From sequence record OP764672.1: a stretch of 64,000 nt of DNA, one strand, 5' to 3'. The position numbers and the translations under genes are program-made. Under the pieces are notes generated by a model. It was not told the origin of the DNA and did no database searches. It was given only the letters and a program-made list of their open reading frames with translations. This DNA comes from Klebsiella phage VB_KpP_HS106. Positions 1 to 41,660 of the stretch are shown here, in pieces (within the stretch, counting starts at the first letter, position 1; every line of letters starts with the position of its first letter).

Positions 1-353
1 CCTCCGTTTCAAAACTTGTGGCAAACTTACTCTCTGGCGTATGTCAGCCTAACTCTGTACTACTTCCTGTATACAGTAAGTTACTGATAAGCCAGTCCAG
101 ATTAATCTATATATCAATTCTGAATATGCTTATAACAAAATGATATAAGACAAACCACTTGACACAGTGTTACTATCTCACTCAATCCCTTAACACAATC
201 CCTCACTTAACCCACTCCAGTCATCACATAGCTATAGATCTATTCTATGTAGAATCACCAGTTATCTCCGTACATCCTACCGGTGTACTCCGATAACATT
301 CACTCAGTACCGTGACCAGTTAACTTATATAGGGAATGGAGAGAATTGAGTGT

Positions 354-461
354 CAAATTACTACTTTCAATCTAATTTACAATTACATCATAACTATCCC
401 TATACTCACCCTATATCTTATCATCCACCTACCTCATACCTAATCACACCTATACTCTACA
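354..461 (+). repeat. 108-nt completely G-free tract (CA/T-only) with repeated cctatactc / cctatatct units
   Basis: Direct reading: no G between 354 and 461. cctatactc occurs twice. Confidence 0.8.
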
Positions 462-497: not shown

Positions 498-514
498 ATT
501 ACCCACAGGGTAAT
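498..514 (+). promoter_or_regulatory. Hairpin attaccc-aca-gggtaat (7-bp stem, 3-nt loop): candidate vRNAP hairpin promoter ~40 nt upstream of the first early ORF
   Basis: Perfect inverted repeat. CCC-NNN-GGG loop closure is shared with the hairpins at 5061, 5188, 10184 and 10528. N4 vRNAP uses 3-nt-loop hairpin promoters. Confidence 0.35.
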
Positions 515-3249: not shown

Positions 3250-3455
3250 ATGCTAAAGAAGCAGTATTGATGCTGAAATTAGGGGTTAAGCTAAAAAGAC
3301 CTTATTGGGAAGGTGAAACATATATAATCTTGGGGCCTAATGACACAATATGTCTAAAGTCCCCTGATGGGGATGTCACCAAAGATACAGTAGAAGGGTT
3401 TCTAACTCAAAAATGGACAGATTGGGAGGTATATTGTCCACAGGACAATAAATGA
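3246..3455 (+). CDS. Tandem paralog 6 (EAVLMLKLGVKL...WEVY)
   Basis: ATGA start/stop overlap with paralog 5. Shared motif. Confidence 0.55.
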   Translation: MNAKEAVLMLKLGVKLKRPYWEGETYIILGPNDTICLKSPDGDVTKDTVEGFLTQKWTDWEVYCPQDNK

Positions 3456-3521
3456 ATATGTTACTACTTGCTTACATATCTGGTTTTATCCTAATCCTCT
3501 ATTTACTATGGGAACATTACT

Positions 3522-3860
3522 ATGAGTAAAATAATTTATGTCTATGCACCTGCTATGCAAAAGTGTATTCATATCCGTGTTACTGATGCATGGCTCAAGA
3601 AAGTAAAGATGGCTTTAGCCATTGGTATTACCCTTGATGGATACTGTGTTGATGGTTCACGTATCAAACGTAAGAACCAGAGAAATATATCCAGCACTCG
3701 TGCAGATACTGATGATATGTTTAAAGGATACGATGTATTCCTTAATAAACATGGTGTATGGGAATTCAAAAAGTATGTACCTAAACAAAGATTCCACGGT
3801 GTAGTAAGTGGACGGTGGTCAAGTAGTGCTGGAAGCATCCAAAACTTACCCAAGGAATAA
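3522..3860 (+). CDS. Early protein with L7/L12-CTD-like motif (KVKMALAIGITLDG), family member
   Basis: Motif [IVL]K.[IV]....A[IL]G[IL] is shared by nine ORFs. Confidence 0.5.
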   Translation: MSKIIYVYAPAMQKCIHIRVTDAWLKKVKMALAIGITLDGYCVDGSRIKRKNQRNISSTRADTDDMFKGYDVFLNKHGVWEFKKYVPKQRFHGVVSGRWSSSAGSIQNLPKE

Positions 3861-4801: not shown

Positions 4802-5058
4802 TCGATGTAAATATTACACTGGAACAATGCCAGCTGGCTTATGAAGGTGGTATGGATGAGTTAGCTCTGAAGCTATTCACCCGTGCTGTAAGCCATTTGT
4901 GTGCAAATGTGGATGAGACTGAAGCACTCAATGTAGTAGCTGAAATCCTCACTGAAGACTGTATTGATACTCTTCATGAATATCAGGCTCTCATTATCTC
5001 TGATCCGGCAGAACATGCTGCTTATGAAGATATCATCTCGTCCATCTTTCTTATTTAA
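4798..5058 (+). CDS. Acidic early hypothetical protein; its 3' end lies in copy 1 of the 127-bp duplication
   Basis: ORF with ATGA overlap to the upstream gene. Confidence 0.45.
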   Translation: MIDVNITLEQCQLAYEGGMDELALKLFTRAVSHLCANVDETEALNVVAEILTEDCIDTLHEYQALIISDPAEHAAYEDIISSIFLI

Positions 5059-5060
5059 GA

Positions 5061-5079
5061 CATTGCCCACAGGGCAATG
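5061..5079 (+). promoter_or_regulatory. Hairpin cattgccc-aca-gggcaatg (8-bp stem, 3-nt loop), copy 1: candidate vRNAP promoter
   Basis: Same cccacaggg core as the hairpin at 498-514. Confidence 0.35.
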
Positions 5080-5187
5080 AATGCAAAGGCAATCCTGCCT
5101 GTTCGAATATCAGGCTCTCATTATCTCTGATCCGGCAGAACATGCTGCTTATGAAGATATCATCTCGTCCATCTTTCTTATTTAAGA

Positions 5188-5206
5188 CATTGCCCACAGG
5201 GCAATG
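5188..5206 (+). promoter_or_regulatory. Hairpin cattgccc-aca-gggcaatg, copy 2, ~60 nt upstream of the codon-optimised gene at 5268
   Basis: Identical to copy 1. Confidence 0.35.
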
Positions 5207-5267
5207 AATGCAAAGGCAATCCTGCCTGTTCGTTCTTCATTTCATATTAACTATCGAGGTATTTATC

Positions 5268-5558
5268 ATGGCTTTTCAGAAAAACACTGCTGCAAGCAAC
5301 ACTTCCAATTCCTCTGCTAACAACGCTGCTGCTCCTGCCGAGCGTAACGTTGGTGGCTATCTGAACATCGGCGTCAAAGGCCGTGATGGTCAGGTTCGTC
5401 GTCTGGGCCAGGGTGGCCGTGGCATCGCTCTGCGTGAAGATCACCCGGTTGAAGGTGCAGTACTAACCTTCCTGCGTGAGCACGGCGTAGAAGCCCTCTC
5501 AGAGCGTCTGGTAATCACCTTTGGTGATGCTAAGGCACTGGAAAACTTCGAACTGTAA
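5268..5558 (+). CDS. Early protein (96 aa) with codon usage typical of highly expressed genes (CGT/CTG/GGC/AAC/GAA), Ala/Asn/Ser-rich N-terminus
   Basis: ATG with GAGGT RBS. The longer 5208 start lies inside the duplication. Codon bias is visibly different from neighbouring ORFs. Confidence 0.55.
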   Translation: MAFQKNTAASNTSNSSANNAAAPAERNVGGYLNIGVKGRDGQVRRLGQGGRGIALREDHPVEGAVLTFLREHGVEALSERLVITFGDAKALENFEL

Positions 5559-40708: not shown

Positions 40709-41660
40709 GATCCCGTTATCTATGGCAGTGTTCCTGGCTACTGATCACTATGATTATATCCCTGGAACCTTCTCAGCAACCAAACTACTGAAGCCAATTC
40801 GTCAGTTGATCCTAACTCCCCGTGTTCCTCCAGAGCTGCAAACAGCTGACCTGGAAGACCTCGTAGCTTCTCGTATGGGTACAGCCATTCACTCAGGTAT
40901 CGAACTGGCTTGGTCACCTGAAAACTTCCCTAAAGCTATGGAGAAGTTAGGCTACTCACCTGACCTGATTGCCAAGGTTAAGGTGAACCCTAAGCCATGG
41001 GAACTGAAGGCCGGGGATATTCCAGTGTACATGGAAATCCGATCTGAGAAAGAAGTCATGGGTTACCGTGTTACTGGTAAGTTTGACTTCGTAGGTAATG
41101 GTGCCTTAGAGGACTTTAAGTCCACTTCAACCTTCAGCTATATGAAGGGTAGTAAGGATCTGGACTATGCCCTGCAAGGTAGTATCTATCGCTGGCTTAA
41201 TCCAGATATCATTACTAAAGATGTAATGTCTATCCAGTTTATCTTTACTGACTGGCAGCGTGCTCAAGCCAGAGCTAACCCTAACTACCCACAGCGTAAG
41301 ACTGAAACCAAACGTTATCAGTTGCTCTCTCTGGAAGAAACTCAGAAGTATGTTGAAGGTCGTATTGCCCTGTATGAGAAGTATAAACAGGCTAAAGACG
41401 AAGACATTCCTGAGTGTACTGACGAGGAGTTGTGGCGTGATGCTCCGGTCTGGAAGTACTACAAGAACCCAGCCAACATGACCCGATCAACCAAAAACTT
41501 TGACACTGAGGCTGAAGCTTACAAGCGTCTGGCTGATGATGGCAACGTGGGTATGATCGTGCATAACCCTGGTCAAGTTAAAGCTTGTGCATACTGCCCA
41601 GCCTTTCCAATCTGTAAACAAAAAGATGAGCTAATTCGTTCTGGTCATCTCGAAGTATAA
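40686..41660 (+). CDS. PD-(D/E)xK nuclease with C-terminal Cas4/AddB-like Fe-S cysteine cluster (C...CxxCx5C)
   Basis: GKFDFV...LEDFKS and CAYCPAFPIC. GAGGAA RBS. Confidence 0.55.
   Translation: MIYTNNTKIPLSMAVFLATDHYDYIPGTFSATKLLKPIRQLILTPRVPPELQTADLEDLVASRMGTAIHSGIELAWSPENFPKAMEKLGYSPDLIAKVKVNPKPWELKAGDIPVYMEIRSEKEVMGYRVTGKFDFVGNGALEDFKSTSTFSYMKGSKDLDYALQGSIYRWLNPDIITKDVMSIQFIFTDWQRAQARANPNYPQRKTETKRYQLLSLEETQKYVEGRIALYEKYKQAKDEDIPECTDEELWRDAPVWKYYKNPANMTRSTKNFDTEAEAYKRLADDGNVGMIVHNPGQVKACAYCPAFPICKQKDELIRSGHLEV

Follow-up and report, generated by a model that had tools for sequence, protein, structure and literature searches.

A conserved G-free hexamer array beside the predicted terminal repeat junction of the N4-like Klebsiella phage VB_KpP_HS106

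Introduction

The terminal repetition of phage T7 is flanked by arrays of CCTAAAG-type repeats, which we take to be the elements known as SRL and SRR; the names are said to come from Dunn and Studier in 1983, and we know of no settled function for either array. In the T7 sequence the CCTAAAG-type repeats lie at approximately 175–345, just inside the 160-bp terminal repeat and before phiOL and A1, and related repeats precede the right copy of the terminal repeat. A secondary origin of T7 is located at phiOL, just after SRL. Repeated short elements around a cut site also serve in terminase recognition, as with the hexamers of P1 pac and the R sites of lambda cosB.

The vRNAP promoters of phage N4 are found in the leftmost part of its genome and are hairpins with a central purine in the template-strand loop, and early transcription in N4 requires gyrase, EcoSSB, and a topologically constrained end (PMC4496689). 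Entry of N4 DNA is known to pause, as a preliminary description of the DNA studied here had noted; only the first ~500 bp are admitted until vRNAP transcribes (PMC4496689).

Here we describe a long tract devoid of G at the left end of phage VB_KpP_HS106 (sequence record OP764672.1), an N4-like Klebsiella phage of the genus Efbeekayvirus (Schitoviridae). The window that we analysed is a stretch of 64,000 nucleotides of this genome, and coordinates are those of its plus strand unless another phage is named. We found no mention of the tract in the literature on these phages.

Genome terminus and terminal repeat

Bases 1–568 of the window match Efbeekayvirus Klebsiella N4-like phages at 81–89% identity (megablast), among them P184, FBKp27, BM327-1.1, BM327-1.2, Tribble, GADU21, Halo_KS_7, P19-618, K17alpha62, and cp20. 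One of these, phiKp27 (FBKp27), has a short direct terminal repeat (DTR) of 349 bp at 40,914–41,262, mapped with PhageTerm (PMC8386662, Table 1). Because position 40,914 of the FBKp27 record, the left edge of this repeat, pairs exactly with base 1 of the window (megablast), the window begins at the physical left terminus, which bears out the earlier view that this is the genome left end. The inner edge at 41,262 corresponds to window position 360 in the alignment of relatives, and conservation among them runs on through a sequence ending in GAGTGTCAAATTACTAC and stops 3–4 nt past that boundary. We infer from FBKp27 that the DTR of HS106 has its inner boundary at ~360, the right end of the genome being outside the window. 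The start of the P184 record was also considered as a physical end and rejected, as the two ends of that record show no match.

With the DTR ending at ~360, the G-free tract does not lie within the terminal repeat. Only 353–360, its first 8 bases, fall inside the FBKp27-derived DTR, so that the earlier suggestion of a terminal-repeat element fails; with the boundary placed by homology, the tract makes up the first ~100 bp of unique DNA after the repeat. The features of the region are collected in Table 1.

Table 1. Features at the left end of the VB_KpP_HS106 window.
Feature	Position	Strand	Remarks
Left direct terminal repeat	1–360	+	Predicted from homology to FBKp27; inner boundary ~360
Second G-free run, 50 nt, inside the DTR	170–219	+	AATCCCT repeats at 180–190 and 193–203; follows conserved TTGACA (159–164)
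C-free purine-rich block adjoining the tract	325–353	+	29-nt C-free run; ties for fourth longest in the window
Variable left part of the G-free run, AT-rich	353–392	+	Spans the predicted DTR inner boundary; relatives carry G and indels
Conserved G-less core, 69 nt	393–461	+	Degenerate hexamers CTATAC/CTATCT in direct orientation
Inverted hexamer closing the array (TATAGG on + strand, CCTATA on − strand)	464–469	−	Motif and inverted-repeat search
First vRNAP-type hairpin promoter candidate, ATTACCC-ACA-GGGTAAT	498–514	+	Perfect 7-bp stem, 3-nt loop; template loop TGT, central purine
First ORF after the terminal repeat, 126 aa	553–933	+	No Pfam family; GGAG at 541–544 precedes

Two further elements lie inside the repeat. 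A G-free run of 46–50 nt occupies the 170–219 site in all of the relatives compared; in the window it contains tandem ACTCAATCCCT/ACACAATCCCT units and comes directly after a TTGACACAG motif (159–219 for the whole region), and this motif is kept in the genus Cbunavirus too, with no conserved -10 element after it. At 261–297, ~65–100 nt from the inner end of the DTR, there is a stem-loop with no T-run following it. Its outer stem, GTTATC/GATAAC, is invariant, relatives differ in the inner stem by compensatory substitutions (A-T replaced by G-C in five sequences and by T-A in five), and 97.7% of cells are paired versus 28–39% when the stem is slid.

Extent and anatomy of the G-free run

G is absent from the plus strand throughout 353–461, and the composition of this 109-nt run is A37 C35 T37 G0. 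This confirms the absence of G that had been described for 354–461 and extends the run by one base. It is the longest run missing any single base in the 64-kb window and about twice as long as the runner-up, the 50-nt G-free run at 170–219, which is likewise at the left end; all remaining single-base-free runs are 44 nt or shorter. Given the composition of the whole window, ~3e-8 such runs are expected, and given the local composition of the non-coding left end (G = 11.8%), ~8e-5. When bases 1–552 were shuffled 20,000 times the longest G-free run was 99 nt and never 109, and in 200 shuffles of the entire window the longest run lacking any one base was 59 nt.

The repeats quoted in the preliminary description are present (CCTATACTC at 399–407 and 449–457, CCTATATCT at 410–418), and its placement of the tract in non-coding DNA, upstream of the first hairpin candidate, holds. 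We rejected coding potential, since the only ORFs that overlap the tract are of 35 and 45 aa and are broken by indels in relatives. The tract has no Rfam match at E ≤ 1, no tRNA was found anywhere in the 64-kb window, and Tandem Repeats Finder makes no call on the tract, because it is too degenerate.

The left boundary of the run is abrupt. The C-free block at 325–353 meets the G-free tract directly, so that strand composition flips sharply at 353. This block contains an inverted copy of the hexamer, TATAGGGA, at 328–335, where relatives have CCTATATAGG, a 10-bp palindrome, and inverted repeats pair 327–335 with 397–416. The G-free run itself has two parts. In the left one (353–392) the variants among relatives include A>G in 8 columns and T>C in 8 columns, and because relatives have G and indels here, the exact length of 109 nt is partly lineage-specific; only 393–461 is conserved and nearly G-free across relatives. 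The core has CCTATAC at 399 and 449, CCTATAT at 410, and CCTA at 428 and 439, and it includes three blocks that are invariant in 10–16 relatives, CCCTATA (409–415), ATACCTAA (436–443), and ACCTAT (448–453). Variants to G are rare in the core, with A>G in 3 columns versus T>C in 9, a difference that is not significant. Strict compositional selection against G was therefore rejected, the bias being weak and non-significant in the core and absent from the left part.

Pooled over the clade, the CTATAC/CTATCT units are spaced by 6, 11–12, 17–18, and 23–24 nt, and the commonest 6-mer is CCTATA, with 28 occurrences in 10 tracts. The left-end cluster is the sole cluster of the hexamer motif in 64 kb. 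We considered TATAGG/CCTATA as a T7-like or middle-promoter family and rejected this, as the motif occurs 9 times per strand in 64 kb, is not enriched, and is clustered only at the left end.

The tract is also physically unusual. Folded as DNA, its single strands have minimum free energies (MFE) of -0.5 (plus) and -1.3 (minus) kcal/mol, compared with -10 to -11 kcal/mol for neighbouring stretches of about the same length. Among the 50-bp duplexes of the 64 kb only one is less stable than positions 355–404, and the same holds for 321–420 among the 100-bp duplexes; a low-stability duplex adjoining repeats, a feature of the origin type, is thus present. The composition is rut-like as well: a rut site calls for ~70 nt or more of unstructured RNA rich in C and poor in G, and the 109 nt here are 32% C and 0% G, with no structure predicted for the strand folded as DNA. 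The tract contains no vRNAP-type hairpin of its own (a 5–7-bp stem and a 3-nt loop with a central template-strand purine), whereas its neighbour at 498–514 does have these features.

Conservation among relatives

Comparison of related left ends, which had been proposed as a check on the tract, shows that it is kept in Efbeekayvirus and in a second genus, Cbunavirus, while low-stringency blastn matched the tract region in Efbeekayvirus only. For example, the Cbunavirus member Pectobacterium phage Possum (our locus L014), with an annotated DTR at 1–636, has a 105-nt G-free tract at 689–793 that is rich in CCTATAC/CTATCT units; hairpins with 3-nt loops come next, and after them the first post-DTR ORF. 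At Possum 810–826, ~20 nt past the tract, there is a copy of ACTATAGGGAG, a sequence that the class III promoter of T7 has at positions -7 to +4. This motif has TATAGGGA in common with window 328–335, and TATAGGGA is not enriched elsewhere in the window.

Among 80 IMG/VR loci retrieved with TerL, every locus with a TerL at least 72% identical and with enough upstream sequence has a G-free array on the early strand. These arrays are 56–167 nt long, lie ~2–2.6 kb upstream of TerL, are built of CTATAC/CTATCT units, and are followed by the first hairpin, with a gap of 34–45 nt in most members and a larger one in a few, including some with tracts split by one G. As array length varies three-fold, the copy number of the unit is not tightly constrained. 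Surveyed loci with TerL below 70% identity mostly have no tract, or have unrelated AT-rich runs. One IMG/VR contig of this sort (L054, TerL 56% identical) has a 65-nt early-strand G-free tract at 2745–2809 with three CCTAAAC units, close to the T7 heptamer CCTAAAG; it is intergenic and 4.2 kb from TerL.

No such tract is present in N4, IME11, or KP8, whose TerL proteins are 55–58% identical and whose gp69-like protein is 37% identical, and we therefore reject the tract as a general feature of the Schitoviridae; the array is confined to a single clade. Nor does the tract go with a different small terminase, a correlate that we rejected because N4 gp69 has a homologue in the ORF030 protein of FBKp27 (no Pfam family matched this gp69-like protein). 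In both N4 and IME11 the inner boundary of the DTR is inside the gp1 ORF, the IME11 termini having been mapped by sequencing. The proposal of a sequence-specific injection stop signal finds no support, as N4, the phage in which the ~500-bp pause was reported, lacks the tract.

A weaker form of the same layout occurs in Pylas (L098), a phage of another subfamily with a PhageTerm DTR at 1–769. A C-free block at 752–776 spans the end of the DTR and is followed by ~70 G-poor nt, a GTACC-TTC-GGTAC hairpin, and then an ORF. The left end of Pylas is itself almost G-free over 1–58, with G/C counts of 1/19 in the first 50 nt.

The edges of the DTR can be compared with the array in the two genera that have it. 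In the window the TTGACACAG marker belongs to the DTR and precedes the tract by 194 nt; in Possum it falls just beyond the annotated DTR, 45 nt ahead of the tract. The boundary thus follows the tract and not the marker. The inner DTR edge being within ~50 nt of the hexamer array in both genera is suggestive, the Cbunavirus DTRs being read-depth estimates. At the other edge, just outside the left cut in Efbeekayvirus, there is a terminator, a G-free tandem CATACACAATACACAT ×2, 27 nt, and the cut site before CCTCCGTTTC. The outer CATACACAATACACAT block is nearly invariant in 14 relatives (FBKp27, at 2436–2500 of locus L001, and 13 others), so that the Efbeekayvirus DTR has the order array-DTR-array, with a G-free array on each side. 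This second block is homologous between the genera, comprising in each a terminator, a G-free ACACAAT-type tandem repeat, and GGTGCGCT. The Possum homologue, at 461–520, is deep inside the annotated 636-bp DTR, and no array is found just outside the annotated left DTR edge of that phage. Since the block is outside the DTR in Efbeekayvirus and inside it in Possum, the left DTR edge differs between the genera; either it has shifted or one of the annotations is off.

The first hairpin promoter and the early region

The hairpin at 498–514 is kept in relatives and begins 37 nt after the end of the tract. The same ACA-loop hairpin recurs on the plus strand at 3432, 5061, and 5188, and none of these has a G-free flank, so that such a flank was rejected as a general feature of hairpin promoters. 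The copies at 5061 and 5188 belong to a perfect 127-bp tandem duplication at 4978–5232 (2.0 copies, 100% identity), each unit of which has a CATTGCCC-ACA-GGGCAATG hairpin promoter candidate; this is either a very recent early-promoter duplication or an assembly artefact. Just past it, 5301–5500 is a GC-rich island (GC 0.55–0.62 versus 0.44 for the window). No 100-bp duplex of the 64 kb is less stable than 3445–3544, which is directly downstream of the second ACA-loop hairpin (3432–3450).

No sigma-70-like site was found in 1–1400, compared with 4.8 ± 2.6 in dinucleotide shuffles, and this absence may reflect avoidance of host promoters in the first-entering DNA. A host promoter at the left end was rejected on this ground and because the conserved TTGACA has no conserved -10 element.

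Possible functions of the array

The reading that we favor, with a probability of only about 35%, is that the array is a protein-binding element forming part of a terminus-processing signal at the junction of the DTR and unique DNA, in a position like that of T7 SRL; of the roles put forward in the preliminary description, a packaging element or an array bound by protein is thus the one that we would retain. A cis-acting array of direct, G-less CTATAC/CTATCT hexamers would mark the left DTR/unique DNA junction and would offer multiple binding sites to a phage protein involved in the processing of genome ends. The likeliest candidate is the terminase complex at work on concatemers, with TerL and a gp69-like protein as its small subunit. 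Adjoining genomes in a concatemer have the DTR between them, and the right end of the outgoing genome must be cut at the inner edge of the DTR, which maps to ~360, where the C-free block with its inverted hexamer (328–335) meets the hexamers in direct orientation (398 onward). A protein occupying the array might position this right-end cut, or alternatively a nick that starts duplication of the DTR. The placement of the inner boundary, by homology only, between inverted and direct hexamers makes this a candidate for a pac- or cos-like adjacency. The sequences themselves show the run, its repeats, its conservation, and where it stands relative to a DTR boundary mapped in a relative; that the array is bound by protein at all, the identity of the protein, and the link to cutting we infer.

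Several observations point in this direction. The hexamer array is unique in 64 kb and has inverted copies on both of its flanks. The tract appears to adjoin the inner DTR boundary in two genera that differ in which part of the homologous sequence their DTRs span, and it persists although the non-coding DNA around it can no longer be aligned. A second G-free tandem array stands on the outer side of the Efbeekayvirus DTR and may be the counterpart of the outer array of T7, a phage with repeats on both sides of its terminal repetition, and the Pylas DTR end at 769 likewise falls at a switch from C-free to G-poor sequence. Against these must be set that N4, IME11, and KP8 have homologous TerL and gp69-like proteins but no array, and a terminase of the N4 type therefore does not need such an array in general. 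Moreover, the DTR boundary of the window is taken from a relative and those of Cbunavirus from read depth, Possum has no array just outside its annotated left edge, and the three-fold range in array length leaves the number of units loosely constrained. The distance to the first hairpin is also equally constant; as the tract is tied as closely to the hairpin as to the DTR edge, its position cannot distinguish a role in packaging from a role at the promoter.

It is possible, and nearly as likely as terminus processing, that the array is an upstream unwinding or anchoring accessory of the first vRNAP promoter. An easily melted, structure-free zone would aid extrusion of the hairpin at 498–514 on the first ~500 bp, either with supercoiling and EcoSSB acting on the zone or with an ejected or host protein anchoring the free end there. 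The short gap between tract and first 3-nt-loop hairpin in most members of both genera fits this well, as do the low stability of 355–404, the failure of either strand to fold, the G-poor spacer before the first post-DTR hairpin of Pylas, and the agreement between the hairpin position in the window and the ~500 bp that enter first in N4; the least stable 100-bp duplex also adjoins a hairpin, the second one. However, the hairpin candidates at 3432, 5061, and 5188 have no G-free tract upstream, and the first hairpin of N4 (~107–119) is preceded by DNA that is merely C-rich. Low duplex stability calls for A+T richness and not for an absence of G together with 32% C, and the conserved hexamers, the inverted flanking copies, and the outer array are left unexplained.

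It is more doubtful that the tract is a functionless (CCTATA)n microsatellite, degenerate in sequence, which slippage during replication has created and altered in length within non-coding DNA that the phage can spare, in which case it would be G-free only because its repeat unit has no G. The 56–167-nt range among relatives and a unit periodicity of ~6 nt would be expected of such a sequence; so would the free acceptance of G in the left 40 nt and the weak, non-significant bias against G in the core. Yet the same unit is found in the same place in genera whose TerL proteins are only 72–73% identical and between which the rest of the non-coding DNA cannot be aligned, 16 Efbeekayvirus sequences all have CCCTATA and ATACCTAA unchanged, and the tract stands in a fixed relation to the DTR edge and the hairpin.

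We consider somewhat less probable again a composite role, in which the array would be a docking site that ties the incoming left end to a membrane-bound ejectosome/vRNAP or to a host protein, closing a topological domain; gyrase would then supercoil the first ~500 bp, the first hairpin would extrude, and the same complex would later set the right-end cut by terminase. If true, this would explain the supercoiling of a linear N4-like end and would link genome entry with DTR formation.

That the tract is part of a replication origin, with iteron-like repeats and an unwinding zone beside an activating promoter, seems unlikely. The region does combine direct repeats with a duplex of low stability and a neighbouring promoter, the T7 record has phiOL at 405, right after the repeat array, and N4 replication reportedly needs vRNAP independently of early transcription (a finding attributed to Guinta et al. 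in 1986). Nonetheless, the hexamers are short for iterons, there is no known initiator candidate, no mapped origin was found in the literature on N4-like phages, and N4 has no tract. Least probable is a role in RNA, as a G-less, C-rich, unstructured leader that is a Rho-loading (rut) site or a host-RNAP leader starting from TTGACA, for while the composition would suit this and the upstream TTGACA is conserved in both genera, there is no sigma-70-like promoter in 1–1400, no conserved -10 follows TTGACA at a spacing of 16–18 nt, rut sites are not usually sequence-conserved or built of repeats, and the tract has no Rfam match.

The array bears on two questions in the biology of the N4-like phages, namely how the inner (right-end) boundary of the DTR is set and how a promoter on a just-injected linear end becomes supercoiled, and it sits between the two features concerned. 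Its conservation across genera, and a size that allows it to be deleted or transplanted, make it a handle on both the DTR boundary and end supercoiling. Genomes of Efbeekayvirus and Cbunavirus are often deposited in permuted form, and the switch from C-free to G-free sequence could help annotators to locate their DTR boundaries.

Comparison with known systems

N4 resembles the window in having a G-poor, non-coding left end (G 17 and C 38 in N4 1–100) that is the first part of the genome to enter, and in having 3-nt-loop hairpin promoters in the first kilobases. It differs in having neither a G-free tract nor a hexamer array, and in that its first hairpin and gp1 are inside the DTR, the inner boundary of which falls in coding sequence.

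The likeness to P1 pac and lambda cosB, which is one of analogy, is that clustered short repeats, including inverted copies, would flank the point at which a genome end is generated. The differences are that the homologous terminases of N4 and IME11 work without an array and that the end type here is a short exact DTR rather than headful or cos.

The closest comparison is with T7. With the window boundary placed by homology, both arrays follow immediately on the left terminal repeat and precede the first early promoters, and both consist of short oligomers repeated in one orientation with a strong excess of C over G on the early strand (the G/C counts per 50 nt over T7 151–350 are 6/16, 4/20, 6/11, and 8/14). 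A related array stands on the outer side of the repeat in T7, and in the Efbeekayvirus relatives that place is taken by the G-free CATACACAATACACAT ×2, which uses another motif (ACACAATACAC). The units themselves are different, a heptamer CCTAAAG in T7 and a G-less hexamer CTATAC/CTATCT here, with only a CCTA core in common; as the T7 unit contains a G, T7 has no long G-free run, the longest being 25 nt. The phages differ as well, T7 being a member of the Autographiviridae that uses host RNAP, whereas in the Schitoviridae hairpin promoters are read by an injected vRNAP. T7 already provides a known case of short-repeat arrays next to a terminal repeat, and what is new here is the G-less hexamer and its presence in a different family that uses an injected polymerase. 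That a podovirus family unrelated to that of T7 has an array at this position suggests that it may answer a general requirement of genomes with short DTRs, and it may also help in understanding SRL and SRR of T7.
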